From a phage, in the sequence record PX068455.1: a stretch of DNA of 64,000 nt; one strand, 5' to 3'. Shown here one piece after another: positions 1 through 12,372 of this stretch (the first letter of the stretch is position 1; each line of letters begins with the position of its first letter). The position numbers and the translations under genes were made by a program. The notes under the pieces were generated by a model. It saw only the letters and a program-made list of their open reading frames with translations. It had not been told where the DNA came from and made no database searches.

Positions 1-128
1 GGCGGACGAAATGGGAATACTTCTCATTCTTATAACAATTCTCAAATATCAAGGCAGTGAGGCAAATTAATAGGTGAGGCCGTTCACACAGTGGCACAAC
101 ATTTGCAACCTATCTTGTGTGGAGGAAT

Positions 129-162
129 GAGAATACCTATCATTGTGAGAACCATTATCATT
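129..162. repeat. Two tandem copies of 16-bp motif GAGAAnnnnTATCATT
   Basis: gagaatacctatcatt and gagaaccattatcatt read directly; same motif recurs near 12357 and 12493. Confidence 0.5.
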
Positions 163-434
163 ACGGGCAATTTAACATAATACCCATTATGCGCACCACT
201 GGCGATACATACAGGGATTGATAACATGAGTTACTGTTTACGCATATAACAATTATATTTCTTACTATTTGTGTGGGATATAGTTAGCAACCAATAGATT
301 AGATATTGACCTGCAGACTTCTGACCGTCCAGACGTCTAAACGCCCACACACCAAGGGTTATACATACATTCCTGAATGTAAACAGGGCCGCAAAAATGC
401 TACCATACCAGTTTGTAAATTTTTCATGCAGCAC

Positions 435-546
435 TTGACAAAGAGGAGAAAAACTTGTCTGACACTTTTGCCACTTTTGACACTTTTACCTTTGACACAA
501 TGTCACACAATATGCCATAATCTGACACCTTATACACTTTCGACAC
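435..546. repeat. Cluster of imperfect direct repeats (T)TTGACAC / TGACAC
   Basis: About six copies (ttgacaa, ctgacac, tttgccac, tttgacac x2, tctgacac, ttcgacac) spaced 10-20 bp in a gene-free region. Confidence 0.5.
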
Positions 547-585
547 AATAACGACTGTTATTATTTCATGTTTCATTGTTCACGT

Positions 586-645
586 ATAGACTATTCCCGC
601 ATAGACTGTTTACGCCTGGATAGTTTACACCTTGACAGTTTACAC
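586..645. repeat. Direct repeats GTTTAC(A/G)C with TAGACT repeats
   Basis: gtttacgc, gtttacac x2 at ~15-bp spacing; two further copies near 1047 and 1090. Confidence 0.45.
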
Positions 646-663
646 AAAGATGATAAGCCATGA

Positions 664-889
664 CATTCGTTTGCATGATAACAATTAACAAGTTAATAAT
701 ATATGACATAATATAAAAGCAGGGCAACTATTAGCAGATCTATAGTTGCCTTGCTTGTTATGTCATGATTAACTAAATACAAGGCAACTATGATCTGATT
801 AATAGATTGCAGACAAACTATCACGGGGGTGATTGTTACTGCTTTTATATTATGTCGCGACTCCGTCGCGCCATGCCATTCGTTTGCAT
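664..889. repeat. Nested direct and inverted repeats (palindromic structure)
   Basis: 13-mer cattcgtttgcat at ~664 and ~877; 18-bp inverted arms gacataatataaaagcag (~705) / ctgcttttatattatgtc (~839); inner 9-bp inverted repeat ggcaactat..atagttgcc (~723-750). Confidence 0.5.
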
Positions 890-1504
890 AGTTGCCTTAT
901 TGTTACAGGTAAAACAATTACATTGTTAACTATTTCTTATCTTTCTCTTAGTCATCTAATGATTCCAGTCAGTATAGTTATGTGCAGTAAACATTAGACG
1001 ACTAAAGATTTCTCTGATTATAGTAACCTATCGTGACAATTTAGGACTGTTTACGAAAAATGTTGACACTTGAGCTGATTTATGTTATGCAGTTTACACG
1101 AATAATTATTTTATGCAGGTATTGACTATTCCGTTATTCTGTGGTTGGAATAAATACTTTGCAGGCTATAGAATGATGTGCGTACGTGAATTCTGAGATC
1201 TGGCGGCTATAGTTACACCCGATTTTTCACGTAGGACACGCTTTTGTGGTTGTGTAAGTGTATGACTTATAAGGGTTTTTAATTGTTGACAGTATACTGA
1301 AGATGTGTATCAGGTTAAATTTTGTGCAATAGTTGCATTACGTGCATTTTTGGAAGGAAAAACGTGTAAAAATGGCCCTGCTACCACACAATGAAAGATT
1401 ATGCAATAGTTATTTTCCATGTATATTTGTACAGTATGTGGGATTGATGGCTAGTCAATTATTCCACTTGCCAGGTAGGGCCGTTTATGGTAGGAGAAGA
1501 GCAG

Positions 1505-1532
1505 ACAAAAAGAAAGGGGCCTTTAAGCCCCT
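1505..1532 (-). terminator. Rho-independent terminator closing the minus-strand early array
   Basis: Hairpin aggggc-ctttaa-gcccct followed on minus strand by TTCTTTTTG; lies just 3' of the 1552 stop. Confidence 0.55.
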
Positions 1533-1551
1533 TGATAATTCAGTTAAGAAA

Positions 1552-1971
1552 TTATAATGATTCGTATATTTCAAAAATCCGATTTGCCAGGTCGTTACGG
1601 TAGCGGAATTTTTCCTCACGTTTGATCATAAGATCTTTATAGCCGTACTCTTTAAGCACTTCATTAACTTTATGGCGGCATACTTTCATATTATCCTGCG
1701 CGTCACCAATAAATCTGTTGCTATGGTGCATGGCTTTAATTTCTTCTTCCAGGACCAGGGCAACTATGCGGACCGGATCAAGCTGATAGGCGGTAACATC
1801 CATGCGGCATTGTAAACGGCTTTTTACGTCTGCCACCGGATATACTGCAACCTCTTCCCCGTCAACATTGACAATAATTAGTTTACCATCGATTTCGAAT
1901 CCTTTCGCCGCCGGACCGTGACAAAAAGCGTTATCAAAGCTATATGCCGGATTATTAGATTTAATGTTCAT
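1552..1971 (-). CDS. hypothetical protein (139 aa)
   Basis: ORF track; last gene of co-directional minus array, followed by terminator. Confidence 0.5.
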   Translation of the reverse strand: MNIKSNNPAYSFDNAFCHGPAAKGFEIDGKLIIVNVDGEEVAVYPVADVKSRLQCRMDVTAYQLDPVRIVALVLEEEIKAMHHSNRFIGDAQDNMKVCRHKVNEVLKEYGYKDLMIKREEKFRYRNDLANRIFEIYESL

Positions 1972-2115
1972 GGTGTTTTTACCTCTTAGTTAATTTTCTT
2001 ACAACTTCCCTTCAAAAAAGAATATAGCAAAACTGCCGATCCCTGTCAACCAGGGATAGCATAATTTTTATGTGATCAAGGGGCTTTATTGCCCCTGACC
2101 ATGTAACTTGTTGTA

Positions 2116-2379
2116 TTATTTGTTGCTCATCCAGTTTTCCCAAGCTGCCTGATAATCTGCCTCACTACGGCGGATCTCTTCTTGCTCTTCAAGGCGGATC
2201 TCTTCTTCCAGGTACCCCAAGATGTCAGCCTTTTTAGTCTGGCGTAGCATCCAGTCATCTTTTTTGCGAGTGAAGATCTTATAAGCTTTCTCGCAAACCT
2301 CTTTTTTGCTACCTTTCTGGACTTCAAGAACACGATAAGCCATATATTGAACTAATTTGAGCTGATCAAGACGTTTCAT
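2116..2379 (-). CDS. hypothetical protein (87 aa)
   Basis: ORF track; upstream TTGAAT-N17-TAAGAT promoter, GGGCC-aaaa-GGCCC leader hairpin, SD AAAGAGG. Confidence 0.5.
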   Translation of the reverse strand: MKRLDQLKLVQYMAYRVLEVQKGSKKEVCEKAYKIFTRKKDDWMLRQTKKADILGYLEEEIRLEEQEEIRRSEADYQAAWENWMSNK

Positions 2380-2439
2380 GATGTTTACCTCTTTGTGCGG
2401 TTCTGATTAGTGGGCCTTTTGGCCCGTGTCATTATCTTA

Positions 2440-2712
2440 TTACTTATGGCGGCAGAATTCAAGCGTTTTTAATTGATAATCTTCCTCAGCCTGGAGTACG
2501 ACCGCCTCGATCATTTCGTTGGCATTGTTAAAGCCATAACCTTTAGCGAACTCATCCGCGCCACCTTCGTGATCATGTTCTGCGTTCATCGCTTCCACAA
2601 AATGGAATTCCAAATTGTTGAGGTAGGGGCTTGATGTTCCGTCCTCTTTTTCGATGAGATCCCAAATAGCATTAAAACGTGATTCGACTTCTTGATTAAT
2701 CCAGCTTGACAT
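2440..2712 (-). CDS. hypothetical acidic protein (90 aa)
   Basis: ORF track; preceded by promoter, hairpin and SD AGGAGAGAGG. Confidence 0.5.
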   Translation of the reverse strand: MSSWINQEVESRFNAIWDLIEKEDGTSSPYLNNLEFHFVEAMNAEHDHEGGADEFAKGYGFNNANEMIEAVVLQAEEDYQLKTLEFCRHK

Positions 2713-2766
2713 AGTGTTTTCCTCTCTCCTGGTTGTTGTGTGGGCACTTTTGCCCCTTCAAGATAA

Positions 2767-2795
2767 ATGTTACCTCACCCCATGGCAGATGTCAA
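2767..2795 (-). promoter_or_regulatory. sigma70-like promoter TTGACA-N17-TAACAT
   Basis: Hexamers read on minus strand upstream of the 2712 start; coordinates approximate. Confidence 0.45.
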
Positions 2796-2826
2796 CGGTT
2801 TTTATAGTTCTTATATGACAGGCAGG

Positions 2827-2843
2827 CCCGGTGATTGTCTCCC
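2827..2843 (-). repeat. Third copy of core motif GGGAGACAAyCACCGGG (minus orientation)
   Basis: Plus strand reads cccggtgattgtctccc, the reverse complement of cores at 12321 and 12455; intergenic. Confidence 0.5.
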
Positions 2844-2929
2844 CCTGTTCCCAAGTGCCGCCCGTTTAATAAGAATAGCAAAAGGGGCCGAACAAGTCAA
2901 CCCCAAAATCAGTACCAAAACACTTTTAT

Positions 2930-3241
2930 TTATACGGTCCGATCATTGGCCTTTGTCCAGGACCTGGCGATCCGTTTCCCGGTCACCTGGAACGGAGGCT
3001 GCATTGTGTGTAATGAGTCCAGAGTAAGGGAGGACCGTTTACGGCGTATCTTCAGGATCGCTAACGTATTGTCCATCTCACGGCCAGGTCCTGGGCGGTA
3101 TGGTGTGCCTCCAGCGTTAAGGTTGATGATCTCATGTATTGAGATCCGGCGTTGTTTTGCTTCCGCATCTTTGAAGATAGCCAGCGGAGGCGCTATGCGT
3201 TGCCGATACCAATCTAAAACGGTTGGCGTAATAGCGATCAT
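2930..3241 (-). CDS. hypothetical protein (103 aa)
   Basis: ORF track; start overlaps upstream stop (ATGA coupling). Confidence 0.4.
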   Translation of the reverse strand: MIAITPTVLDWYRQRIAPPLAIFKDAEAKQRRISIHEIINLNAGGTPYRPGPGREMDNTLAILKIRRKRSSLTLDSLHTMQPPFQVTGKRIARSWTKANDRTV

Positions 3242-3429
3242 ATTTTACCCCCTATGTAGTCCGGTCGGTTTTTCTCTGTCATACGCTTAAGCAATTCTTG
3301 CATGTTGCTTATGGCTTGTAGTGTATCCTCTTCAAGGGATGAATCAAGATAATCAGGATCATTCTTCACCTTGCAATGATTATGATAACGCAGTACCGCC
3401 AGTACTTTTTTAACTTCTTCCGCTGTCAT
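3238..3429 (-). CDS. hypothetical protein (63 aa)
   Basis: ORF track; co-directional, coupled to downstream ORF. Confidence 0.45.
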   Translation of the reverse strand: MTAEEVKKVLAVLRYHNHCKVKNDPDYLDSSLEEDTLQAISNMQELLKRMTEKNRPDYIGGKI

Positions 3430-3437
3430 TATCGCGC

Positions 3438-3572
3438 CTAAAACAATGAGTTAATATATAACACCAGATCGCTGACTACCAGGACAACATTAATCAGCAC
3501 ATACCTAACCATAAAGGGAAAGATCGCCAACATTGCCGCCACGATCCCCATGGTAATAATTATCTTTCTCAT
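3438..3572 (-). CDS. small hydrophobic protein (44 aa), not in ORF track
   Basis: ATG 2 nt after upstream stop; translation MRKIIITMGIVAAMLAIFPFMVRYVLINVVLVVSDLVLYINSLF read manually; no clear SD. Confidence 0.3.
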   Translation of the reverse strand: MRKIIITMGIVAAMLAIFPFMVRYVLINVVLVVSDLVLYINSLF

Positions 3573-3574
3573 GG

Positions 3575-3859
3575 TTAACGGTTCACGTAAGTTTTCCCGT
3601 TCACGGTTATGGGCAGATCCTCCAGGTCTGGATCTTCCTTAAGGTCGCGAGCAAGCTCACCGCACCGGATACCCTCGAATCCGTAGTACTCTGTTGTGCC
3701 GTCCTTAAAAGTTTTAGCGGCAAGGCATAAGCGATAAGTAACCCCGATTTGATTGACGGCATGAATATCCGTTAGATTAACCTCTTTTGCCAGCTCTTTA
3801 GCCATTACAGGCGCATTAAGTCCAACAACCAGGGTAACCACTGCGATCATCTTTTTCAT
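3575..3859 (-). CDS. secreted protein with N-terminal signal peptide (94 aa)
   Basis: MKKMIAVVTLVVGLNAPVMA signal-peptide-like N-terminus. Confidence 0.5.
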   Translation of the reverse strand: MKKMIAVVTLVVGLNAPVMAKELAKEVNLTDIHAVNQIGVTYRLCLAAKTFKDGTTEYYGFEGIRCGELARDLKEDPDLEDLPITVNGKTYVNR

Positions 3860-3950
3860 TGTGTCTATCCTCTTTCTGCTACGTTTAAGGCGGCGGTAAC
3901 CGCCTGTTTATGCTTTGTTGGTTAATTTTCAGGTATCTGTATAAATTAAA

Positions 3951-4166
3951 CTATGCTGTACGCTCAACTATAACAACGGTTTGGGGGATCTCCCCTTCCA
4001 CCACTAGTAAGGCCTTTTTCTGCGTGATAGATATCTTTACCCGTTGCAGCGTGGCGGTGAAGTCTTTCATTTCGTCACGCGGTGTTTTAGTGCAGTACCA
4101 GATCTCAGGCTTGCCGATCTGTAAGTTGCGTAAAAATTCCGTTTTGCCTGTTTTGTTAGTGATCAT
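3951..4166 (-). CDS. hypothetical protein (71 aa)
   Basis: ORF track; consistent with minus array; antisense ORF 3910..4302 rejected. Confidence 0.45.
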   Translation of the reverse strand: MITNKTGKTEFLRNLQIGKPEIWYCTKTPRDEMKDFTATLQRVKISITQKKALLVVEGEIPQTVVIVERTA

Positions 4167-4175
4167 TTGCCAACC

Positions 4176-4280
4176 TCACCCGATACCGTTGGAAGACAAG
4201 ATCATATTAGACATGGTTGCAATCAGGCCAATACCCAGGGCAATAACCAAGATCACTGCATCGATTAATTTCTGTTTCAT
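4176..4280 (-). CDS. small membrane peptide (34 aa), not in ORF track
   Basis: MKQKLIDAVILVIALGIGLIATMSNMILSSNGIG read manually; stop 9 nt before next ATG. Confidence 0.3.
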   Translation of the reverse strand: MKQKLIDAVILVIALGIGLIATMSNMILSSNGIG

Positions 4281-4357
4281 GGTGTTTATTCTCTTCTGTT
4301 AGTAACCTTATTCATGGGGCCGCTACCACAGCCCCAGGGTAAGGCAGCTATGTGCTT

Positions 4358-4603
4358 TTAGTGTTTCATTCCAACCATCGCGGCACGGATCGCCGTAGTG
4401 CTGTACTTGAAGCCGTCCGGGGTCTTATCTTGTCCGGTTAGCTCCAGAAAAAGCATCATATCCCGCGCCGCATCATTACGATTAGCATTGGCGTTAATAA
4501 AGCCTTGGGCCAACCGGTACAATGACTCATCGTTATTAATCCAAAGGCTTACATTCCAATGAGTTTTGTTTTTGTAACCGTTATAACCTTTATTGCTTTT
4601 CAT
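4358..4603 (-). CDS. hypothetical protein (81 aa)
   Basis: ORF 4358..4684 trimmed to internal ATG (residue 28) preceded by SD AAGAGG; TTGACA-N17-CATAAT promoter and GC hairpin lie inside the longer ORF. Confidence 0.5.
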   Translation of the reverse strand: MKSNKGYNGYKNKTHWNVSLWINNDESLYRLAQGFINANANRNDAARDMMLFLELTGQDKTPDGFKYSTTAIRAAMVGMKH

Positions 4604-4690
4604 GGTGTTTACCTCTTCTTTGTTCCAGGTGGCGGACCATTCCACCGCCTTATGTATTATGCTTTGTAAGATGGCTGTTGTCAAACTATT

Positions 4691-4870
4691 TTAACGATAA
4701 TCATCGTACGCTTTATTAACCTGGCGGATATAACATTCAAAAGCCAGATCAATAGATTTATATTCACGGATATACTCACCATAGGAAACCACATACATTT
4801 CTATAGCTTCCTCATATGCGAGGAGAATAGAATCTAAGCCTACGATCTCAGTCTTTGCAATAATAGCCAT
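4691..4870 (-). CDS. hypothetical protein (59 aa), below ORF-track threshold
   Basis: ATG preceded by SD AGAGGAT; MAIIAKTEIVGLDSILLAYEEAIEMYVVSY... read manually. Confidence 0.4.
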   Translation of the reverse strand: MAIIAKTEIVGLDSILLAYEEAIEMYVVSYGEYIREYKSIDLAFECYIRQVNKAYDDYR

Positions 4871-4945
4871 GATTTTTATCCTCTTTGTAGTTGGTGGGGT
4901 TCGTTGCCCCCTTTGATTTATATATTACAGTCTTATATGGTCATG

Positions 4946-5179
4946 TCAACTATTTTCAAAAAATTTTTCTGCTGTGATATTCTTCCCGGTAGGGTTCGCT
5001 ACTTTCAAAATTTTATCATGCACTGGACGCCCAAAAGAATAAGCGCCGTACACAGTAAACCAATAATCGCCGTCAGGTTGTACTATTACTGCCGCATATG
5101 GTACGCCTTTTTCGTTTTTGCTGACAAAATAGATCACGTTGCCATTAATAGCCTCGGCGCGTTTAATTTGTTCCATCAT
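4946..5179 (-). CDS. hypothetical protein (77 aa)
   Basis: ORF track; SD AGAGAGG upstream; antisense 4904..5245 rejected. Confidence 0.5.
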   Translation of the reverse strand: MMEQIKRAEAINGNVIYFVSKNEKGVPYAAVIVQPDGDYWFTVYGAYSFGRPVHDKILKVANPTGKNITAEKFFENS

Positions 5180-5234
5180 GATGATTTGCCTCTCTTTATT
5201 TTCATAATTGGGGGCCTTTTCGGCCCCGCCAGGT

Positions 5235-5519
5235 TTATTTATTGATAGCGTGCAGCGGGAAAGCTACGCCAGGTTGATAAATAACCTTTACAACCTCATC
5301 AGGACAAAAGAAGTTGCAGAACTCACCGCAATAGGCCTCATCCTCTTTCAACTCTTCATCAACATACTCAAAAAAGTAGTCGATGCTTGGATAATCCTGG
5401 CCGTGATTATAGTCAACCATCGTTAATAATAACTCTTGATCATTCCGTAGGATGTGCATACCCGCTTTTAAGTATTTTGCTTCCATTTCTACTACATTGC
5501 CAGCGGTAACAATAGCCAT
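5235..5519 (-). CDS. hypothetical acidic protein (94 aa)
   Basis: ORF track; co-directional. Confidence 0.5.
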   Translation of the reverse strand: MAIVTAGNVVEMEAKYLKAGMHILRNDQELLLTMVDYNHGQDYPSIDYFFEYVDEELKEDEAYCGEFCNFFCPDEVVKVIYQPGVAFPLHAINK

Positions 5520-5721
5520 GATTTTAACTCCTATCTATCTGGTCAACGATTGGGGGCCTCCCCCTCGACAACTCTTATTATCCATATTGTCGGGAATGAT
5601 GCAAGTACTTCTTTAAAAATTTTTTAAGCGCCCCGTATGCCGTTGTAACGCCAAAATAATAAAGGCCATGCAACCGCATGGCCTTTATGTGATTATATTG
5701 CTGTAGGCCCTGCCTGGGGCC

Positions 5722-6072
5722 TTATTTTGCATTCTTGCCTGTATTGCCGCCACGGTACCAGCGTTTGCGGTGAAAATGGTAATAATCACCCTCGGCATTA
5801 AACATCAGATGATTTTCAATAACCAGCTTACGAAGGTGGGCCGGATCTTGTTCCATTCTTGCCAGATTCCGGCGGCTGTTACGTAAGCGTATAAATTCCA
5901 TATTCAGGCCGTTGATTGCAGCATGGATGTCAAAGTAACCACCTTTGAGACGTTCACGCATGGCGTTAAGCTCAACACAATATACAGATTTCTCACAAAT
6001 CAAGGTATTAGCTAGGGCGCGGACCTGGGCAAGGGGGTTAAGCTCATTAAGGTAATATAGTTTGACTTTCAT
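5722..6072 (-). CDS. hypothetical protein (116 aa)
   Basis: ORF track. Confidence 0.5.
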   Translation of the reverse strand: MKVKLYYLNELNPLAQVRALANTLICEKSVYCVELNAMRERLKGGYFDIHAAINGLNMEFIRLRNSRRNLARMEQDPAHLRKLVIENHLMFNAEGDYYHFHRKRWYRGGNTGKNAK

Positions 6073-6089
6073 AAAATCGCCTGCTGAAA

Positions 6090-6410
6090 TTAGTTTGAGA
6101 AAACATCGTTCACAATAGCGATCACAATGCCGCCCACCTTGTCACGGTCAGCAATGCACAAATCACCATGGATCATGCGGTAGTCTGGATGATCTTTCAC
6201 AGAATAGTCAATAAGTGTTTTCTTGTCGTCCAGCTTCGTAACTTCCATTCTCATAACGATATGAGAATCATCAAAGGCATTATTCCGAAAAGTCATAGCC
6301 TGACCGCCAGGGCACCCGGTGATCTCAACTTCCACGCCGTCTACGATCTGACCATCAAAGAAATAGAGATTATTGGCGGGTATAAACATGATCATTGCTC
6401 CTTTTTGCAC
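6090..6410 (-). CDS. hypothetical protein (106 aa)
   Basis: ORF track; preceded by SD AAAGGAG and conserved 45-bp module. Confidence 0.5.
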   Translation of the reverse strand: MQKGAMIMFIPANNLYFFDGQIVDGVEVEITGCPGGQAMTFRNNAFDDSHIVMRMEVTKLDDKKTLIDYSVKDHPDYRMIHGDLCIADRDKVGGIVIAIVNDVFSN

Positions 6411-6433
6411 TGATTATTTTAACAGGGTTTAAA

Positions 6434-6478
6434 TTTACTTTATTGATGGCCCTGGAGTCAAGGCCATCTAAAAATAAA
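6434..6478 (-). promoter_or_regulatory. Conserved 45-bp promoter/operator module, copy 1
   Basis: Identical 45-mer in 3 copies; minus strand reads TTGACT within inverted repeat GATGGCC..GGCCATC, then TAAATT 18 bp downstream. Confidence 0.5.
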
Positions 6479-6480
6479 TT

Positions 6481-6681
6481 TTACAGATCTACAATCTCTT
6501 TAATTCGTTTTACTGCTGCCTCAGCGCCTTGAGGGTAGAAATTATGATAACCAATCACGCGGGTAATACTGATCGCCGCTTGGTGGTCCTCGTAGTCGCC
6601 TTTGAATATTTCTTGACCATCAACCAGCACAGCAATTTTTTCTTCTTTTTTGAAGTTAATAACGCGGATATTGTTGCTCAT
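6481..6681 (-). CDS. hypothetical protein (66 aa)
   Basis: ORF track. Confidence 0.45.
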   Translation of the reverse strand: MSNNIRVINFKKEEKIAVLVDGQEIFKGDYEDHQAAISITRVIGYHNFYPQGAEAAVKRIKEIVDL

Positions 6682-6780
6682 TTTGTTTCTCCTTTTGGAA
6701 CTTTGTCTGTGTGGTGGGGAGTGTCTCCCCGTTGATTGTTATTATCCATATTCTGGACCGGATTGCAACACTCAGGAAGA

Positions 6781-6826
6781 AAAATTTTTTGAAAAAAGTT
6801 AGGCCCCCAGGGATCGGGGGCCGTTA
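6781..6826 (-). terminator. Rho-independent terminator
   Basis: GGCCCCC-gatccct-GGGGGCC hairpin followed on minus strand by TAACTTTTTTCAAAAAATTTTT. Confidence 0.55.
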
Positions 6827-6946
6827 TCAGTTGCTTACAGCGATAAAATACATCCCTACGCCTAACAATATTTCAAGGGCGATGATCTCAAGCCATACCA
6901 TAACACGGCGCGCCTTATCGGTGCGGGGCTTATCCTTGGTTGTCAT
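6827..6946 (-). CDS. small membrane peptide (39 aa), not in ORF track
   Basis: ATG preceded by GGGGGAG; MTTKDKPRTDKARRVMVWLEIIALEILLGVGMYFIAVSN read manually. Confidence 0.3.
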   Translation of the reverse strand: MTTKDKPRTDKARRVMVWLEIIALEILLGVGMYFIAVSN

Positions 6947-7055
6947 CGTCTCCCCCTTCCCTCCTGCTAGCAGTTACGTGGTTTGCAATGGCCCCCAGTA
7001 GTCCGATCACGACACACATCGCAAGAAAAATTATCTCTCCCGTTGTTCGATCCAT
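6930..7055 (-). CDS. small membrane peptide (41 aa), internal start of ORF 6930..7115
   Basis: Internal ATG with SD GAGAGG; hydrophobic IIFLAMCVVIGLLGAI; longer form would start at GTG without SD. Confidence 0.25.
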   Translation of the reverse strand: MDRTTGEIIFLAMCVVIGLLGAIANHVTASRREGGDDDNQG

Positions 7056-7165
7056 TGTTATAAAACCTCTCAAGATCAGGCCTAAAAGTAAATCTTTCGT
7101 TATTGAATCCGTCACGCCAGGCGGCTGGCTTCAAATCTTCACTAAATGGATTAATTAACGTGGCA

Positions 7166-7537
7166 TTATTTAAACGGTTGGCCCACATATTTTCTATTCC
7201 TCTCAAATAAGCGATCCGCCTCAGTTAAACAAATCTCATGGGCGTGATCTCTGGTTTTAGCTTCATCGAAAACCTGTTGTGCAAGGCTGCAACGTAGGGA
7301 GACTGGGAGATCACTATAATAGGCGTTGACAAACGTTTGAGCGTCGTACAGGTCTGAAAATACTTTACCCTTTCTATTATTCCCCTTGTCAACAATTGCA
7401 AGGATAACCAATACAATAGTTGCAACCACCCCCAGGAAAATAGATATAATAAACCATAAAAAGGCGGATCTCCCCATCTTGCCAGCGATCCAGGCGTTAA
7501 ACAAGGCAACCAATATAGCCAAAATAATAAATTCCAT
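7166..7537 (-). CDS. membrane protein (123 aa)
   Basis: ORF 7166..7570 trimmed to ATG (residue 12) with SD AAGAGG; two hydrophobic helices (MEFIILAILVALFNAWIAG, FLWFIISIFLGVVATIVLVILAIV). Confidence 0.5.
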   Translation of the reverse strand: MEFIILAILVALFNAWIAGKMGRSAFLWFIISIFLGVVATIVLVILAIVDKGNNRKGKVFSDLYDAQTFVNAYYSDLPVSLRCSLAQQVFDEAKTRDHAHEICLTEADRLFERNRKYVGQPFK

Positions 7538-7601
7538 TCTATGTACCTCTTTTACAGTTCTGATCAACAATAAGGCGGCAAATATGCCGCCTGTTACCTG
7601 A

Positions 7602-7982
7602 TTAAAAATTATCGCCGTAAATCTTTCCGCTTTCTACCCATACCACCACGCGAGGCATACTATCCCACACGTCTTGTTTTAGATTGAGCGCGTGCAATTC
7701 TTCGGTGGTGCTCATACCGGGCACGGGCTGATTGTATACTGCAAAACGACCACCCGCATAATCATAGGCCAGGGTTAAATCACACTGGATCATCTTTTTG
7801 ATCATGGCATTAAGCATGGCGTTAGCCGCATACTGATCACGTTTTAAAGGCAACTCTTTGATTAGTTTGCGATAGTTTTCGATATGGTCGCACACTGTTT
7901 CACGCGGAAGATCTTTCATATCTTCACGGAATGTAACCAGGTTAAACATAACGGTGTCAATAGCCTTGGTAGTGGTTTTCAT
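7602..7982 (-). CDS. hypothetical protein (126 aa)
   Basis: ORF track; own promoter and leader hairpin. Confidence 0.5.
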   Translation of the reverse strand: MKTTTKAIDTVMFNLVTFREDMKDLPRETVCDHIENYRKLIKELPLKRDQYAANAMLNAMIKKMIQCDLTLAYDYAGGRFAVYNQPVPGMSTTEELHALNLKQDVWDSMPRVVVWVESGKIYGDNF

Positions 7983-8035
7983 GATTTTATCCTCTTTGTT
8001 TTGTGTGGGGCAAGACGTTTGCCCCTTGAGTTTTT

Positions 8036-8063
8036 AATATAGCAGGTTTTTAGATTATTGCAA
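8036..8063 (-). promoter_or_regulatory. sigma70-like promoter TTGCAA-N16-TATATT
   Basis: Read on minus strand; followed by leader hairpin GGGGCAAACGTCTTGCCCC, SD AAGAGGA and the 7982 start. Confidence 0.5.
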
Positions 8064-8071
8064 CACTTTAT

Positions 8072-8695
8072 TTATGAAAAACTCATCTCCCCATATTCAT
8101 CCACATCAAACCGCCAATCATTGGCCTCGATAAGGCCGATCAAGTATTCTGCGGTGAACTGTTCTAGATAGGCCTCCTCCAGGTCTACGTAAACCTTGCG
8201 GGATAGCTCCCGTACCGTCTCGGTGATCAGTTCTTCCAGGTCTTCCACTTTGTTTTCTTGTTTGGCGGTCAGATCTAGCCAAGTGGTATCAATGTACCCG
8301 CTTACAGTGTTTTCATGGCTGTAATGGCTGTACTTGTCGCGTTCAACACTGGCTGATAACTCGCCATCGTGCATTGTGCCGAACAAGTGACGAATTGATC
8401 TGAACTTGGTCAGGGCCTTGACTTTACGCAAAAATTTTTCTAAATCCACGTTTTCAGCACTGATTGACGCGCCGTCACCCTGGCACCAAAAGCCGGACCA
8501 ATGTACTTCGGTATCTTCAAGGCCGTACTCTGGAAAAACTTGTTCTTTATAGTATTCAATTACATTTTCTGCGAAAAAATCATCCCCGCTGCGTTCTTCT
8601 CTTTCGCGGACCATTTCAATGGCTTTTTCTTTTTGTTCGTCGGTTAGCACGTCGAAAGATAAATTGTAACCTGTGGTAATGTTAACGGTGGTCAT
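8072..8695 (-). CDS. hypothetical acidic protein (207 aa)
   Basis: ORF track; high Asp/Glu content; function unknown. Confidence 0.55.
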   Translation of the reverse strand: MTTVNITTGYNLSFDVLTDEQKEKAIEMVREREERSGDDFFAENVIEYYKEQVFPEYGLEDTEVHWSGFWCQGDGASISAENVDLEKFLRKVKALTKFRSIRHLFGTMHDGELSASVERDKYSHYSHENTVSGYIDTTWLDLTAKQENKVEDLEELITETVRELSRKVYVDLEEAYLEQFTAEYLIGLIEANDWRFDVDEYGEMSFS

Positions 8696-8752
8696 GATAT
8701 TTTCTCCTGTTTTCTTTGTTAGTGGCGGGAAGTTTTCCCGCCTGTGTGTTTA

Positions 8753-8780
8753 ATTATACTTATTGAGATTTACTTGTCAA
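8753..8780 (-). promoter_or_regulatory. Consensus sigma70 promoter TTGACA-N16-TATAAT
   Basis: Perfect consensus hexamers on minus strand; -35 overlaps last codons of upstream gene; followed by hairpin GGCGGGAAAACTTCCCGCC and SD AGGAG. Confidence 0.6.
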
Positions 8781-9030
8781 CACTATTTTTTAAATTATTG
8801 TGGCGCAAAATGTTTAAAATCTCCTCAACGTCATCAACACGGCGGCAATTTTTAAACGCTACCAATTGCCCCATGATTTTAATCACTGGGCGGCCTTGCC
8901 AGTGACCCTGGAGAAAGCGCGCCTTGACTTTATCGGTGGAACTATCACGCCACCAAATAGCCTTGTTGTTGCAGTAGTAAAAATTATTCAGGATAACATC
9001 AACTTTATCAAAATTTTTTAATTTACGCAT
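8770..9030 (-). CDS. hypothetical protein (86 aa)
   Basis: ORF track; own promoter upstream. Confidence 0.5.
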   Translation of the reverse strand: MRKLKNFDKVDVILNNFYYCNNKAIWWRDSSTDKVKARFLQGHWQGRPVIKIMGQLVAFKNCRRVDDVEEILNILRHNNLKNSVDK

Positions 9031-9062
9031 GGCGTTTACTCCTTTCTCTCTTTGATGTGGTT

Positions 9063-9090
9063 AGTATAGCTAACCTGTTGACGATGTCAA
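9063..9090 (-). promoter_or_regulatory. sigma70-like promoter TTGACA-N16-TATACT
   Basis: Read on minus strand upstream of the 9030 start. Confidence 0.55.
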
Positions 9091-9210
9091 TGATATTTTT
9101 AACGCCATAAAACGGCCCTGGGCGATGTTTTCAGGTTAAGGGGGGCGATTGCATAGGTGGGGGCCTTTTTGGCGCTTACAGGGCCAACCAGGGGCGCTAT
9201 TAGTAGGATA

Positions 9211-9240
9211 GAAATAAAAAGCCCCGCACAATGGCGGGGC
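9211..9240 (-). terminator. Rho-independent terminator
   Basis: Perfect 7-bp stem GCCCCGC/GCGGGGC followed on minus strand by TTTTTATTT, directly after the 9249 stop. Confidence 0.6.
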
Positions 9241-9248
9241 GTTGGTTG

Positions 9249-9446
9249 TTATTTGTCTTTATGGCGATATCGTTCTGCCTGTCGTTCACGTTCCAAAAGT
9301 AGGCCGGGCAATTTACGATCATAATGATTGCGCCAGATCTTCCCAAACCTTTTTGGCTTATTCAGTTTATTGTTACGCTGGCGGCGTTCTGGCAGCTCTT
9401 CGGAATCATGAGGGCGCTTTACAATTTTCTCGAAATTAATTTTCAT
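9249..9446 (-). CDS. small highly basic protein (65 aa), possible nucleic-acid binder
   Basis: ORF 9249..9470 trimmed to internal ATG (residue 9); Arg/Lys-rich. Confidence 0.4.
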   Translation of the reverse strand: MKINFEKIVKRPHDSEELPERRQRNNKLNKPKRFGKIWRNHYDRKLPGLLLERERQAERYRHKDK

Positions 9447-9789
9447 ATCTTCCCCCCTTGCTAACTTCAATATTGGCCTGAATAGCCCGGATGCGGCGCT
9501 TTATAACTTCCTGATCTGTGTGGTCGTATCCCCAAAAGTCTACAATTTTTGCGCCACCCGCTTCCAGGCGGTATAGTGTTTCCTGCATTTTGTAAGCCGG
9601 GATCGGTCGCGGTGTTACTTGGTCGCCTTCTTTATTTTTATACTTTATAATATAATCTTCGTTATCGTTGAATGCCCAAAATGGATATTCTGCAAGGGCG
9701 GTACTTCCTCTTTCCTTTTTATCCTGGATCTTATTTACAATTAAAGCCGTAGCAATAGCGCCAATAATAAAACTAGCCCCGCTAATCAT
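9436..9789 (-). CDS. membrane-anchored protein (117 aa)
   Basis: N-terminal hydrophobic helix ISGASFIIGAIATALIV. Confidence 0.5.
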   Translation of the reverse strand: MISGASFIIGAIATALIVNKIQDKKERGSTALAEYPFWAFNDNEDYIIKYKNKEGDQVTPRPIPAYKMQETLYRLEAGGAKIVDFWGYDHTDQEVIKRRIRAIQANIEVSKGGRYEN

Positions 9790-9865
9790 GTGTACTTTCT
9801 CCTTTCATGGTGTTAATAAATTATCTTTATAGATGGCCCTGCAACCAGGACCACCGAAAAAATAA

Positions 9866-10111
9866 CTATTTCACAATGCCTACAAAACAGATCCCGCCTT
9901 CACCTATGTAAGCAATATCGGTAACTTTATAATTTGTCAAGATCTGTTTATTTAGTTCATTAATAAAATCGGTCATTGCGTTGGTGTAGTTGTCTTCCAT
10001 ATCTAAGGCATAATCCCAGGCGTAAGCCTTTTTACGTCCGAAGCCTTTTACCATGATACGGGCGCTTTTGGTGTTGGTGGGCGCATAATATTTGGTGATT
10101 AGTGCTGCCAT
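9866..10111 (-). CDS. hypothetical protein (81 aa)
   Basis: ORF track; preceded by 45-bp module copy 2 and SD GAGGAG. Confidence 0.5.
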   Translation of the reverse strand: MAALITKYYAPTNTKSARIMVKGFGRKKAYAWDYALDMEDNYTNAMTDFINELNKQILTNYKVTDIAYIGEGGICFVGIVK

Positions 10112-10151
10112 GGTTTTAACTCCTCATTAGTTCAGTGTTAACAGTGTAAAG

Positions 10152-10196
10152 TTTACTTTATTGATGGCCCTGGAGTCAAGGCCATCTAAAAATAAA
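10152..10196 (-). promoter_or_regulatory. Conserved 45-bp promoter/operator module, copy 2
   Basis: Identical to copies at 6434 and 10773; TTGACT-N18-TAAACT on minus strand. Confidence 0.5.
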
Positions 10197-10197
10197 T

Positions 10198-10539
10198 TTA
10201 CTCGTTTTCTTCCAGCTCTGAAAGCTCTTCTTTCACTTCTTCGAGCTCTGTCTGCAATTCTTGGTACTCTTCATCGTCCTCAATATCCAGGCTGTCGATG
10301 TAGTCGCTAAATCCGCAGCGGTAAGCGATAGGATCTAGCTCCTTGAGGATACGCGACGGAAGAAAAGAAATGTTTCCGATCATAATTTCGCCGTAGATCT
10401 CGTCTAACCATTCATCATAGTTTTCGTCGTACTTGTCCTCGTCGATTTCAAAGTTATCGATCTTGTTCTCAAGGTCTGCGATCTGTTTTTTCAGCGCGGC
10501 GATCTGCATAGCTTTTTCTGCGGCGGTCATAGTAGTCAT
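10198..10539 (-). CDS. highly acidic coiled-coil protein (113 aa), possible DNA mimic
   Basis: Very high Asp/Glu content (EEVKEELSELEENE tail); own promoter and leader hairpin. Confidence 0.5.
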   Translation of the reverse strand: MTTMTAAEKAMQIAALKKQIADLENKIDNFEIDEDKYDENYDEWLDEIYGEIMIGNISFLPSRILKELDPIAYRCGFSDYIDSLDIEDDEEYQELQTELEEVKEELSELEENE

Positions 10540-10590
10540 GGTGTTTTCTCCTTTTGTGTGTTCTGGGAAGTTTTCCCGTTTACGTGTTTA

Positions 10591-10618
10591 AGTATACCGA
10601 TTTGGGTTAGCTTGTCAA
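10591..10618 (-). promoter_or_regulatory. sigma70-like promoter TTGACA-N16-TATACT
   Basis: Read on minus strand; followed by hairpin GGGAAAACTTCCC and SD AAAGGAGA. Confidence 0.55.
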
Positions 10619-10738
10619 TTAAAAATTTAAGAAAAATTTTGCAAAACTGTTGGCGCTACTCATTAACATTTGCGCCAGGATGTAACCGACAACGCAAACG
10701 ATAATAGTTACCTTTGTGTATTGGCGTGTAGTGCTCAT
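10619..10738 (-). CDS. small membrane peptide (39 aa), not in ORF track
   Basis: ATG preceded by AAAGGGGG, just downstream of module copy 3; MSTTRQYTKVTIIVCVVGYILAQMLMSS... read manually. Confidence 0.35.
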   Translation of the reverse strand: MSTTRQYTKVTIIVCVVGYILAQMLMSSANSFAKFFLNF

Positions 10739-10772
10739 CTTAAAGCCCCCTTTTTCGCTTAGTTGAGACTAG

Positions 10773-10817
10773 TTTACTTTATTGATGGCCCTGGAGTCAA
10801 GGCCATCTAAAAATAAA
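10773..10817 (-). promoter_or_regulatory. Conserved 45-bp promoter/operator module, copy 3
   Basis: Identical 45-mer; TTGACT within inverted repeat GATGGCC/GGCCATC. Confidence 0.5.
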
Positions 10818-10818
10818 C

Positions 10819-11223
10819 TTAGTAAGTTTTCAGTACTTTACCGTCCAACCTGTCAAGCTGGATCTCGATAGCTGCAGAAAACCTATTGTACACCACGTCG
10901 CCCATAGAATCCAACCAATCTATGACGTTATACACCTGCTCTTTGTTCTTACAGGTCCGGATCCGTTTCATGATGTAAGCCGGATCAATATTGGTACTCT
11001 CGTCGGTGTTCCCCTGTACCTGGTTTGCCGTATTAGTTACATCTTTAATGGCCTTTACCACCACCTGGAAGGGCTTTAAGGTACCTTTTGCGTTCATCTC
11101 ACGCGCTTTTGCGGCGCGGTTGTTATATGTTACACAACGGCGGCAAATGTTGATCAAATGCATGTCAATAATTTTTTCATCGTTTGCCAGTTCATTCATG
11201 ATGCGGCGTACGTTCTTATTCAT
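10819..11223 (-). CDS. hypothetical protein (134 aa)
   Basis: ORF 10819..11322 trimmed to ATG at residue 34; the in-frame upstream part contains promoter and leader hairpin. Confidence 0.5.
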   Translation of the reverse strand: MNKNVRRIMNELANDEKIIDMHLINICRRCVTYNNRAAKAREMNAKGTLKPFQVVVKAIKDVTNTANQVQGNTDESTNIDPAYIMKRIRTCKNKEQVYNVIDWLDSMGDVVYNRFSAAIEIQLDRLDGKVLKTY

Positions 11224-11272
11224 GATCTTTTTTCCTTTGTGTTGGCGGGAAACATTCCCGCCTTTTGTGCCC

Positions 11273-11300
11273 AGTTTACTTGAATTTTGCAGCGTGTCAA
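11273..11300 (-). promoter_or_regulatory. sigma70-like promoter TTGACA-N16-TAAACT
   Basis: Read on minus strand; followed by hairpin GGCGGGAATGTTTCCCGCC and SD AGGAAAAAAG. Confidence 0.5.
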
Positions 11301-11306
11301 CAATTT

Positions 11307-11705: not shown

Positions 11706-11769
11706 GATTTTATCCTCTTAGTGTCTTTTGTGCTTTTAGTGTATTTGGTGTCGGACTGTATGTCAATAC

Positions 11770-12320: not shown

Positions 12321-12372
12321 GGGAGACAACCACCGGGGATGGGCGCTGCATAAAATGAGAACGGTTATCATT
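12321..12372 (+). repeat. Bipartite repeat unit A: core GGGAGACAACCACCGGG plus GAGAACGGTTATCATT
   Basis: Read directly; core sits inside palindrome CCGGTG..CACCGG; gene-free region. Confidence 0.5.

Follow-up and report, generated by a model that had tools for sequence, protein, structure and literature searches.

Fur-box-like palindromes and a separate promoter-leader motif in non-coding DNA of the Vequintavirus ECP2309

The window analysed here is the left 64 kb (64,000 nucleotides) of ECP2309 (PX068455.1), a strictly lytic, rV5-like Escherichia coli phage of the genus Vequintavirus with a whole genome of 136.9 kb. It opens with the left copy of a direct terminal repeat (1–459), which is identical to positions 136405–136863 of the record; terminal repeats of Vequintavirus phages measure 458–459 bp (PMC6563267, PMC7471380). 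Among the early genes are dozens for small proteins with no assigned function, and the annotation of the phage lists ribonucleotide reductases of classes I and III together with a glutaredoxin, each of which needs iron. A tblastn search of the 137-kb genome with the E. coli Fur sequence as the query found no Fur homologue (best E-value 2.4), and the sole annotated 'transcriptional regulator' of the genome has no Pfam domain. The non-coding regions are AT-rich and hold many other repeats. A segment of 130 bp at position 12301, present in the GenBank record and in all relatives, is absent from the window.

Motif 1 (GAGAAnnnTTATCATT) forms the core of a 19–21-bp palindrome, AAATGrGAAnnnTTmTCATT, of which there are six copies; in its 19-bp form the palindrome reads AATGAGAA-N3-TTmTCATT. 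The copies, to which no strand is assigned, were scored with a Fur position weight matrix (PWM) built from 21 ChIP/MEME sites of E. coli Fur (PMC10219339, Table S6). Three lie in the terminal repeat: box A (10–28; AATGGGAATACTTCTCATT; 18.1 bits), 9 bp from the physical left end, box B (126–144; AATGAGAATACCTATCATT; 16.5 bits) and box C (144–162; TGTGAGAACCATTATCATT; 19.7 bits), which abuts box B. The other three lie in a non-coding block. Box D (core 12354–12372; AATGAGAACGGTTATCATT; 24.3 bits) is overlapped by a second register shifted by 6 bp (…TTATCATTATCATTT; 18.3 bits) and extends with it to 12378, box E occupies 12490–12508 (AACGAGAATGATTATCATT; 24.2 bits), and box F (12519–12537; AATGAGAACTTTTCGCATT; 18.2 bits) starts 29 bp after E. 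Since positions 1–459 are duplicated at 136405–136863, boxes A, B and C are found at both genome ends, and the packaged genome carries nine boxes, the six plus the three of the right terminal repeat. The exact sequence GAGAANNNTTATCATT occurs at 147–162, 12357–12372 and 12493–12508, and the copy at 129–144 (CTATCATT) differs from it by one mismatch. The tandem pair at 129–162 and the copies near 12357 and 12493 had been described in an earlier note on this DNA and are confirmed, but that description was incomplete, the copies at 10–28 and 12519–12537 having been missed.

The earlier note called the likeness of motif 1 to Fur boxes weak, an assessment that does not hold: compared at the sequence level, the resemblance is strong, and the scores are in the range of genuine operators of E. 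coli Fur (16.5–24.3 bits in the phage; 10.7–25.3 bits, median 18.3, for the E. coli sites scored leave-one-out). The motif as first written fits the gpmA site TAATGAGAATTATTATCATT, the top E. coli ChIP site. The ten best PWM matches in the 137-kb genome are the phage Fur-box sites, the next match scoring 14.2 bits, and at a threshold of at least 14 bits there were 11 matches versus 0.4 expected from shuffles. Likewise, the 19-mer Fur consensus AATGATAATNATTATCATT, with up to three mismatches, matched six times in the genome versus 0.23 times in shuffles, and motif 1, with up to two mismatches, matched 13 times versus 2.5 expected, in line with the non-random reuse noted earlier. An extra PWM match at 3549, within what is probably a small ORF, is likely to be fortuitous. 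The half-sites TGAGAA and TGGGAA are common to the phage boxes and the E. coli gpmA, exbB and yncD operators; box D is close to exbB (TAATGAGAACGACTATCAATT), and box A resembles yncD (AAATGGGAATGGTAATCATT). The exact box-E 17-mer is present in more than 120 bacterial species of many phyla. Flanking genes were inspected for this 17-mer only, at 20 loci sampled regardless of function, with ten proteins chosen by eye from the flanking ORFs for a Pfam scan; at nine of the 20, the chosen ORFs encoded domains of iron or metal uptake (TonB-receptor plug, Peripla_BP_2, ferric SBP, FTR1, ZnuA). The 17-mer thus stands upstream of genes for TonB receptors, siderophore-binding proteins and iron permeases. 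Motif 1 thus probably represents functional binding sites for host Fur, a conclusion in which we have considerable confidence. Our search of the literature found no earlier description of these phage Fur boxes, nor did it turn up Fur-binding experiments for any of the Vequintavirinae or a transcriptome of an rV5-like phage.

The positions of the boxes passed the check that the earlier note had set as a possible refutation, conservation in related phages: they are the same in five Vequintavirus relatives, with variation mostly in the central triplet. Box A is kept in six of six relatives with only this triplet varying, box C has CCA, TAG or CTG at the triplet between constant half-sites, and box D is kept in HdK5, FFH2 and nimi. 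TGAGAAT and the canonical TGATAAT interchange at orthologous sites, as in the box B orthologue of an IMG/VR locus (L008), which has the canonical half-site TGATAAT. The 17-mer core of box E is identical in phages of E. coli, Enterobacter, Serratia, Klebsiella and Aeromonas, and the box F orthologues of other genera form almost perfect palindromes, such as AAATGAGAATGCTTCTCATTC. Seunavirus, Certrevirus, Mydovirus and Phapecoctavirus have arrays of two to four boxes with an exact phasing of 29 bp, and box positions are kept across genera although the flanks diverge. The Fur-type motif also occurs in T5-like phages, jumbo phages and many IMG/VR contigs that share few genes. Downstream of the array, after an AT-rich stretch, three direct repeats (GAAAACGAAAAAnnGATCGAGTACT) follow on the plus strand at 12639–12659, 12713–12737 and 12778–12802; they are context, outside the original finding. 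Repeats with CGATCGAG also follow the Fur array in EC152, Kashira, a Klebsiella Mydovirus, POP15, CR8 and phiTE.

Motif 2 (GGGAGACAAyCACCGGG; GGGAGACAAYCACCGGG) occurs in exactly three copies in the window, versus 0.18 matches expected even with three mismatches allowed, and the rest of the 137-kb genome holds no further copy at up to three mismatches. Copy 1 (GGGAGACAACCACCGGG) lies at 12321–12337 and copy 2 (GGGAGACAATCACCGGG) at 12455–12471, both on the plus strand, and copy 3 (GGGAGACAATCACCGGG) is inverted, at 2827–2843 on the minus strand; the positions and the intergenic promoter setting of copy 3 agree with the earlier description. Copy 3 belongs to the 2713–2929 intergenic region, between sigma-70-like promoters at 2900–2872 and 2795–2767 on the minus strand. 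The former (TTGACT-17-TATTCT with TG), whose orthologue in the Certrevirus CR9 is TTGACT-18-TATCCT, is predicted to drive the leader that contains copy 3, 28 nt after the −10. P1 (TTGACA-17-CACAAT) precedes copy 1 by 34 nt in the record and all relatives; in the window, copy 1 stands without it because of the 130-bp gap at 12301. P2 (12401–12431, plus strand) was read from the sequence as TTGCTT followed after 16 nt by TACTAT or after 19 nt by an overlapping TATAAT, and the promoter scan missed it because of the 19-nt spacer. Copy 2 begins 23 nt past the −10 of P2 and ends 18 nt ahead of box E. Other genera, too, have promoters at the position equivalent to P2, such as TTGCAA-17-TATATT in POP15; in the rV5 paper, promoters are given as predictions only.

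A promoter thus stands upstream of every copy of motif 2, and all copies and their homologues lie on the transcribed strand 22–34 nt downstream of a sigma-70 −10, usually 16–18 nt upstream of a Fur box. Promoter, leader with motif 2 and Fur box together make up a cassette, which forms a tandem pair on the plus strand at 12.3–12.5 kb and recurs in two IMG/VR Vequintavirus contigs (L005, L017) and a 347-kb jumbo phage contig (L025). No Fur box follows copy 3 in this phage; at the same locus in the Certrevirus phages CR9 and KaOmega, the promoter is followed by GGGGGAGACAAACACCGG and then by the Fur box AAATGAGAATGGTTATCATTC. Transcripts from P1 and P2 would be antisense to all neighbouring genes, no plus-strand ORF follows these promoters, and no iron gene was found near the boxes. 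The earlier proposal that one DNA-binding protein recognises both motifs survives, as a host-factor site, for the AT-rich motif 1 and fails for motif 2, which is asymmetric, keeps its sense orientation to transcription despite lying on opposite genomic strands, varies in its distance from the promoter and is also present in an unrelated phage where no Fur box accompanies it. On these features, motif 2 behaves as a separate transcript-leader element with no Fur-box character.

The folding models lend weak support to RNA structure in this leader. In single-sequence folds of copy 2, GACAA occupies an apical loop on the stem GGGCA/TGCCC (12441–12445/12474–12478), and most single folds place GACAA or ACAAA in a loop, though an unpaired A-rich core is expected from composition alone. 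A possible hairpin on the plus strand at 12479–12501 (GUUAUUCU-GCAAACG-AGAAUGAU), which would join the U-rich leader tail to the left half of box E, was predicted in six of the eight P2 leaders folded; its left arm shows only wobble-preserving transitions among genera, and the pairing is lost in phiWec179. The alifold consensus for the leader was poor, single-sequence z-scores ranged from −1.0 to −3.7, complementarity between the 5′ and 3′ parts of the leader was no better than in shuffles, and two substitutions in copy 1 of HdK5 break predicted pairs. Rfam 15 gave no covariance-model match at the motifs (window positions 1–14000, E up to 5) and none in six related loci at E up to 1.

Fur sites that repress in E. 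coli have their centres near −20 (median), counted from the start of transcription (PMC10219339). With P1 and P2 as the reference, boxes D, E and F fall at about +50 to +100, an unusual location for repressing sites. The promoter scan found no convincing promoter overlapping boxes A–C, and a weak minus-strand candidate over box E (TTGAAT-18-CAGAAT), compared by eye, is not kept in all genera. Considering these results, we propose the following scenario, in which Fur occupancy and all functional consequences of the boxes are inferred from sequence. Fur–Fe2+ dimers of the infected cell are predicted to occupy the phage boxes, and Fur at about +50 to +100 may act as a roadblock or silencer, so that P1 and P2 would produce mostly a short structured leader RNA while Fur is on the DNA. 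Under low iron, or with Fur displaced, RNA synthesis would continue into the AT-rich stretch and the direct repeats; in Certrevirus, where the 2.8-kb locus that corresponds to copy 3 has a Fur box, read-through at this locus would reach early genes. The three boxes of the terminal repeat would load Fur at the genome ends. Gating by Fur is a tentative element of this scenario, which may well prove wrong, yet the account as a whole, combining Fur boxes, cassette and gating, is the one that we favour on balance.

The best-placed alternative, though an unlikely one, is that the boxes serve as decoys that titrate host Fur as the genome replicates and do not regulate phage promoters. Fur is present at a few thousand copies per cell, and nine boxes per genome in hundreds of genome copies could derepress host iron uptake and feed the iron enzymes of the phage, whose two classes of ribonucleotide reductase and glutaredoxin need the metal. 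The location of the boxes in non-coding DNA off the promoter cores, with high-scoring sites in phased arrays, would suit such a role, as would the principle of the Fur titration assay, in which multicopy Fur boxes derepress Fur-regulated genes (Stojiljkovic, 1994, as cited in PMC10219339). However, Fur would be titrated only once the genome has replicated, too late for additional iron uptake to help much in a short lytic cycle, and titration leaves unexplained the fixed promoter-leader geometry, the 29-bp phasing and the box 9 bp from the genome end.

Recognition of the palindrome by a protein that the phage itself encodes, an early repressor or an origin binder with no relation to Fur, is doubtful, too. 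The preferred half-sites TGAGAAT/ATTCTCA are one base off the textbook TGATAAT, this preference is common to the phage arrays, and the unassigned small proteins of the early region provide dozens of candidates. Nevertheless, the same sequences are operators of iron genes in bacteria, including E. coli gpmA, exbB and fepB, orthologous sites drift to the canonical TGATAAT, and the motif recurs in unrelated phage groups with few genes in common; the lack of a Fur homologue in the genome also speaks for the host protein.

Comparison with phage T5 raises another reading, about as doubtful as the last, in which a nucleoprotein block or anchor of Fur on its boxes would cause a pause in DNA transfer, organise it or shield the genome ends, the region at 12.2–13.1 kb being analogous to the T5 injection stop signal (iss). 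The annotated T5 iss (9140–10149) has Fur-PWM matches of 20.8, 14.1, 28.3 and 22.3 bits around the shear point at 9618, and in DT571/2, which is T5-like, the equivalent untranslated repeat region contains seven to eight boxes of this kind. Both genomes have a non-coding palindrome array followed by direct repeats, 8–9% from the left end and past minus-strand early genes: the T5 array (9551–9710) precedes GTGCAAATCCGACA direct repeats as the array at 12354–12537 precedes the repeats at 12639–12802, the array of ECP2309 lies at 9% of the genome length, against 7.9% for the DNA that T5 transfers in its first step, and both genomes start on the left with minus-strand genes. In addition, gTGCCCcTGATTCTCAAATGAGAAT directly upstream of one T5 box resembles the Vequintavirinae leader tail, and three boxes of ECP2309 lie within 162 bp of its physical end. 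On the other hand, the T5 block is inside a 10-kb terminal repeat, versus 459 bp here, and is accompanied by DnaA boxes; the paired DnaA boxes that Davison noted as a conserved feature are missing near the motifs, TTWTNCACA occurring only twice in the 64 kb and at neither motif. To our knowledge, T5 and BF23 are the only phages with documented two-step transfer; rV5-like myoviruses are not known for it, and stopping DNA translocation with a cytoplasmic repressor is mechanistically speculative. The T5 literature that we searched does not mention Fur, so the comparison is one between two uncharacterised arrays. The broader idea that virulent phages with defined ends recruit Fur both structurally and regulatorily, the rV5-like block and the T5 iss being one type of device, is speculative and in our view improbable. 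It would cover rV5-like myoviruses and T5-like siphoviruses, with phased arrays in the terminal repeats and at the edge of the early region that enters first, and, if true, would identify Fur as a host factor, long sought, by which genome entry or early read-through is paused or gated according to host iron status.

That the palindromes act at the RNA level, as hairpins, terminators or processing sites in P1 and P2 transcripts, with an incidental likeness to Fur boxes, is very improbable. In favour of this reading, read-through from P1 and P2 would carry transcription across boxes D, E and F, the leader tail is able to pair with the left half of box E, and in POP15 a terminator-like hairpin directly follows the array. 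Yet no promoter was identified for boxes A–C, an AT-rich stem of 8 bp with a 3-nt loop makes a weak hairpin, mismatches in the palindrome are uncompensated (box F in the window), and conserved half-sites around a variable central triplet are the signature of a dimeric DNA-binding protein. Chance recurrence in AT-rich non-coding sequence, which is full of other repeats and has produced a probably fortuitous match at 3549, is effectively refuted by an enrichment of 25- to 30-fold above shuffles, by the PWM scores and by phased arrays whose positions are kept across genera despite divergent flanks. Binding of host Fur to motif 1 remains the preferred reading.

Among known systems, motif 2 recalls the PeSLs of T4-type phages, which are reportedly mobile segments that combine an early sigma-70 promoter with a conserved stem-loop. 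The likeness is one of pattern: both are repeated within a genome and common to unrelated phages, and PeSLs differ in having no association with Fur boxes. The lambdoid nut boxB and put elements are orientation-specific and promoter-proximal, lying in the first 25–45 nt of early transcripts, and the boxB loop of P22 is GACAA. Motif 2 has the same sense position in a presumed early transcript and a predicted apical GACAA loop like that of P22 boxB; unlike nut boxB, it has no covariation-supported stem, two of its three copies point into non-coding DNA, and no boxA (CGCTCTTTA-like) was seen by eye in the leaders. Bacterial Fur boxes (gpmA, exbB, fecI, yncD) have the same palindrome, aAATGAkAAtnATTmTCATTt, with the same half-site variants, but they lie over the −35 and −10 elements, whereas the phage boxes lie in the terminal repeat or 50–100 nt downstream of promoters, in 29-bp-phased arrays and in the genome of a strictly lytic phage. 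Phage-borne DNA that would use the Fur of the host as its sensor also has a parallel in temperate phages, in the Fur-regulated stx1 and sitABCD genes of lambdoid prophages, and a Fur box has been reported upstream of sit operons in lambda-like coliphages (PMC6969025). There, a single box over the promoter of a cargo gene benefits the lysogen, whereas in ECP2309 the boxes form arrays in a virulent phage and stand apart from any cargo gene.

The window aligned, starting at record position 1, with the genome of Escherichia phage ECP2309 (PP464953.1; Vequintavirus, rV5-like; 136,863 bp). The first 459 bp of this record recur exactly at its right end, in agreement with the direct terminal repeats of 458–459 bp published for Vequintavirus (PMC6563267; PMC7471380), and window position 1 is thus the physical left end of the genome. 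Every annotated gene from 1.5 kb to approximately 98 kb is on the minus strand, except for a small predicted plus-strand ORF at 1372–1557. Three non-coding regions carry the motifs, namely the terminal repeat, the intergenic region at 2713–2929 and a block of approximately 0.9 kb at about 12.2–13.1 kb, in which neither an annotated gene nor a credible ORF was found. The earlier note had reported two motifs there, and both were confirmed in the window at the positions claimed. Motif 1, the AT-rich GAGAANNNTTATCATT, gave 13 matches at up to two mismatches versus 2.5 expected. Motif 2, GGGAGACAAYCACCGGG, occurred exactly three times, at 12321–12337 (plus strand, copy 1), 12455–12471 (plus strand, copy 2) and 2827–2843 (minus strand, copy 3), with 0.18 matches expected even at up to three mismatches.

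Motif 1 proved to be the core of a 19-bp palindrome, AATGAGAA-N3-TTmTCATT, with six copies in the window: boxes A (10–28), B (126–144) and C (144–162) in the terminal repeat, and boxes D (12354–12372), E (12490–12508) and F (12519–12537) in the non-coding block. At up to three mismatches, the whole genome held no palindrome beyond these except the copies in the right-hand terminal repeat. Fur boxes are textbook elements, and their palindromic 19-mer consensus AATGATAATNATTATCATT matched the genome six times at up to three mismatches, against 0.23 in shuffled sequences, all but one of the matches being motif-1 sites. The remaining match, a seventh site at 3549–3567, was rejected as fortuitous because it is explained by an unannotated minus-strand ORF of 47 codons (3430–3572; MRKIIITMGIVAAMLAIFPFMV…), which looks like a small membrane protein.

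A symmetric position weight matrix (PWM) built from 21 Escherichia coli ChIP-seq/MEME Fur sites (PMC10219339, Table S6) scored boxes A to F at 18.1, 16.5, 19.7, 24.3, 24.2 and 18.2 bits, respectively; the leave-one-out scores of the real E. coli operators ranged from 10.7 to 25.3 bits, with a median of 18.3. The ten top scorers in 137 kb were the phage sites, followed by a runner-up of 14.2 bits, and the mean maximum of shuffled sequences was 13.5 bits. The top Fur site of Table S6, gpmA (TAATGAGAATTATTATCATT), exactly fits the motif-1 pattern as the earlier note wrote it, and boxes D and A are similar to the E. coli operators of exbB (TAATGAGAACGACTATCAATT) and yncD (AAATGGGAATGGTAATCATT), respectively. 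Furthermore, the exact 17-mer of box E (GAGAATGATTATCATTC) is found in more than 120 bacterial species of the cyanobacteria, alpha-, beta- and gamma-proteobacteria, Firmicutes, Actinobacteria and Bacteroidetes. Among 20 such loci chosen irrespective of function, with the ORFs for the Pfam scan hand-picked by eye, nine had flanking ORFs of the TonB-receptor plug, siderophore-type periplasmic binding, ferric solute-binding, FTR1 iron permease or ZnuA-type families. In related phages the central triplet varies and the half-sites are kept, and in a relative at 88% identity the canonical TGATAAT replaces TGAGAAT at the same sites, with diverged flanks.

The earlier note had judged the resemblance to Fur-box half-sites weak; this was an understatement, because the consensus, the E. 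coli operator scores, the bacterial use and the variation among relatives all agree and no Fur homologue was found in the phage genome. The assignment of motif 1 as predicted Fur boxes is thus well supported. The consensus sites of other E. coli regulators (CRP, FNR, ArgR, KdgR, RcsB and UvrY) did not fit in spacing or half-sites. A Fur-repressed minus-strand promoter over box E (TTGAAT-18-CAGAAT) was also rejected, its −10 element not being conserved in phiTE, an Aeromonas phage contig (L055) or a 347-kb jumbo-phage contig (L025); being plausible in Vequintavirus and Seunavirus, it is retained as a caveat only.

A 110-nt query around box E matched 267 phage records. The region was read in Seunavirus (EC152, GAP31), Serratia phage Kashira, Mydovirus, Certrevirus (POP15, CR8, phiTE) and Phapecoctavirus (ESCO13, phiWec179), and in Avunavirus (Av-05) and one Aeromonas phage the reading was limited to the leader, the short stretch following the promoter, and the first boxes. 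Where the reading was complete, the genera have a common layout, in which one or two plus-strand sigma-70 promoters are followed by a GC-rich leader, two to four Fur boxes spaced by exactly 29 bp, and direct repeats that contain CGATCGAG, Phapecoctavirus excepted. The 29-bp start-to-start spacing was found in at least six genera (loci L245–L250, L031, L067 and L099). Boxes E and F of the window start 29 bp apart (12490 and 12519), and in the terminal repeat the spacing is 116 bp (4 × 29) from A to B and 18 bp from B to C. This phasing suggests that Fur may form a higher-order assembly on the DNA. Highly diverse viral contigs of IMG/VR also contained the box E 17-mer, in 103 stretches, often in the form of the complete palindrome or with an overlapping TATAAT, and 28 of these loci carried at least three sites of at least 15 bits.

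Beyond the Fur array, a perfect palindrome, TTAGCATGCTAA (12549–12560), precedes an AT-rich stretch; it is similar to the SlyA/MarR-type consensus, TTAGCAAGCTAA. Three direct repeats, GAAAACGAAAAAnnGATCGAGTACT, follow the AT-rich stretch at 12639–12802, each with a GATC, and have equivalents in most genera read; they resemble iterons and may thus be an origin or a repeat set like that of the T5 injection stop signal (iss). The Fur-box block is not the pseudo-ToxI locus of phiTE, because that locus is at 106.7 kb and the block matches at approximately 39.6 kb in the phiTE record (JQ015307.1).

A sigma-70-type promoter lies 5′ of every copy of motif 2, and all copies have the transcribed orientation. 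Copy 3 begins 28 nt after the −10 element of TTGACT-17-TATTCT (minus strand), copy 2 begins 23 nt after that of P2 (12401–12431, plus strand), and copy 1 begins 34 nt after that of P1 (TTGACA-17-CACAAT, plus strand). P1 is absent from the window, which lacks 130 bp at 12301 that are present in its own record (PP464953.1, 12301–12430) and in every relative examined; the missing segment also includes part of a (C)CAGGT repeat run and another promoter-like site. A second length difference between window and record, of approximately 119 bp, falls within window 19871–63751. Boxes D and E follow copies 1 and 2 after 16–18 nt. Copy 3 has no Fur box in phage ECP2309, and at its orthologous locus in Certrevirus CR9 and KaOmega a promoter is followed by an GGGGGAGACAAACACCGG leader and the Fur box AAATGAGAATGGTTATCATTC. 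The recurring unit is thus a cassette of promoter, leader and Fur box. Further cassettes were found in other Vequintavirus contigs, and a version without motif 2 in the 347-kb jumbo-phage contig.

Four copies of motif 2 were found in a 46.8-kb phage of IMG/VR (3300027123_000194; L011, L014) that is unrelated and has no match in INPHARED. Its units consist of a TATAAT −10 element (preceded by TGn in three of four), approximately 22–25 nt, GGAGACAAyCACCGGGG and a U-run, with no Fur box, and may be small RNA genes organised around motif 2. The earlier proposal that the recurring motifs are sites for one host or phage DNA-binding protein is partly supported, in that motif 1 is a predicted site of a host protein, and fails as regards a single protein for both motifs. 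Motif 2 lies at variable distances from its promoters, keeps a strict orientation and also occurs where there are no Fur boxes, which argues for a separate signal, acting in the transcript or on the non-template strand. The motif-2 leader appears not to have been described before, and its cassette would represent a mobile transcript-leader element common to unrelated phages.

Single-sequence folds of the leaders recurrently gave an outer GC stem, an inner hairpin with a GACAA or ACAAA loop, and a tail hairpin, predicted to form between the left half of the first Fur box and the U-rich tail; the segment predicted to be exposed is GAGACAAUCACC. Between genera the tail arm differs only by wobble-preserving transitions, and the outer stem, GGGGCA(C)...(G)TGCCCC, recurs around another loop in the T5-like phage DT571/2. 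The RNAalifold consensus was poor and uninformative, z-scores were modest (−1.0 to −3.7), and the complementarity of the 5′ and 3′ flanks was at shuffle level (mean z −0.5). Substitutions in copy 1 of HdK5 disrupt predicted pairs, the tail hairpin is lost in phiWec179, the stems shift register between genera, and an unpaired A-rich core is expected from composition alone. Considering the poor consensus, the modest z-scores, the shuffle-level complementarity and the broken pairs, a structured leader RNA is called possible only. An Rfam scan of window 1–14000 and six related loci returned nothing at either motif, and blastn of 12436–12545 against 5,426 E. coli genomes gave no match to a host leader or sRNA. 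ARAGORN found no tRNA anywhere in the window, nor under the tRNA-Met annotated in the homologous stretch of Klebsiella phage K45PH128C2 (OY978796.1). The tRNA-Met, tRNA-Ile and tRNA-Lys features of that record all fall on sequence without an ARAGORN tRNA, and its feature table thus seems displaced relative to the sequence.

A different promoter-driven element of approximately 95 nt (…GCCACCCCACGGCGAAAAGGCGGGGCTAAC…GGAAGGTGAATCGCCGGTAG…) is nearly invariant in Seunavirus, Certrevirus, Mydovirus and Phapecoctavirus (L245, 522–640; L246–L250; L018, 3815–3935; L019, 3805–3925; L020, OY978796.1, 2300–2420) and absent from Vequintavirus. Its variable apical stem carries compensatory changes (GC to AU, CG to GC), and it has no match in Rfam. 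The element may represent a new structured RNA, and GCCGGTAG in its 3′ part resembles the RfaH ops core.

Non-coding DNA adjoining the terminal repeat on its right side (420–1320) is dense in further repeats, namely TGACACTTT (4.7 copies, 460–498), GACAGTTTACACCTG (2.8 copies, 604–645), the palindromes GGCAACTAT/ATAGTTGCC (approximately 720–900) and CCATTCGTTTGCAT, present twice. Plus-strand sigma-70-like promoters over 1–3300, oriented against the genes, numbered 18 versus 8.6 expected. Short GC-rich stem-loops without U-tracts (e.g. GGGCCAAAAGGCCC and GGGGCAAAAGTGCCC) at 2080–2100, 2405–2430 and 2740–2755 lie 5′ of the ribosome-binding sites of consecutive early genes on the minus strand, where they may serve in processing or stability; many similar sites are labelled terminators in the HdK5 annotation.

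The sequence establishes that the predicted Fur operators are of high quality, phased and conserved, and that they are located in the terminal repeat and directly 3′ of short leaders next to promoters. As the best-supported model, we propose that Fur-Fe2+ bound at about +50 to +100 would limit read-through from P1 and P2, and from the local promoter at the Certrevirus counterpart of the 2.8-kb locus. Iron status would then decide whether the output is a short leader RNA or longer transcripts. The weak points of this read-through scheme are that repressing Fur sites of E. coli centre near −20 (PMC10219339), that the DNA downstream of P1 and P2 is non-coding and that boxes A–C have no evident promoter. 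Alternatively, the boxes may titrate Fur and derepress iron uptake for the iron-dependent ribonucleotide reductases, which are annotated in the phage, or may act in a T5-like manner during DNA entry or at the ends of the genome. The palindromes might also act at the RNA level, the tail hairpin being predicted to include half of a Fur box in folds of modest z-score. Binding by a phage protein with Fur-like specificity is disfavoured by the lack of a Fur homologue in the genome.

No such motif is listed in the rV5 genome paper, which reports sigma-70 promoters, terminators and a 'non-coding' box. A full-text literature search for Fur boxes in virulent phages returned nothing, and the only match for Fur boxes and phage genomes concerned boxes upstream of sit operons in temperate lambdoid phages (PMC6969025). 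The Fur box is a known type of element. What appears to be undescribed is its use by virulent phages in phased arrays, conserved across subfamilies, within terminal repeats, early control regions and leader cassettes. Should Fur bind, such phages would use the host's own sensor to read its iron status directly, or to manipulate it, with a bearing on their iron-dependent nucleotide synthesis, on performance in the iron-limited gut and at infection sites, and on therapy with rV5-like and T5-like phages.

To our knowledge, the host factor of the T5 injection stop signal has not been known for decades. The same analysis placed strong predicted Fur boxes inside this signal: in the annotated iss of T5 (NC_005859, 9140–10149), PWM hits of 20.8, 14.1, 28.3 and 22.3 bits at 9551–9710 flank the first-step-transfer shear point at approximately 9618 and are followed by direct repeats. 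The untranslated repeat region of T5-like DT571/2 (5463–7582; L056) contains seven to eight such boxes, with a leader-like tail, gTGCCCCTGATTCTCAAATGAGAAT, preceding a Fur box. Davison compared 25 T5-like iss regions and discussed DnaA boxes without using the word Fur, and a 2026 T5 preprint makes no mention of Fur. The window differs from T5 in that DnaA boxes, for which we searched, are absent near its motifs. It resembles T5 in that a Fur array with direct repeats lies past the minus-strand early genes, at a distance from the left end of 9% of the genome length.
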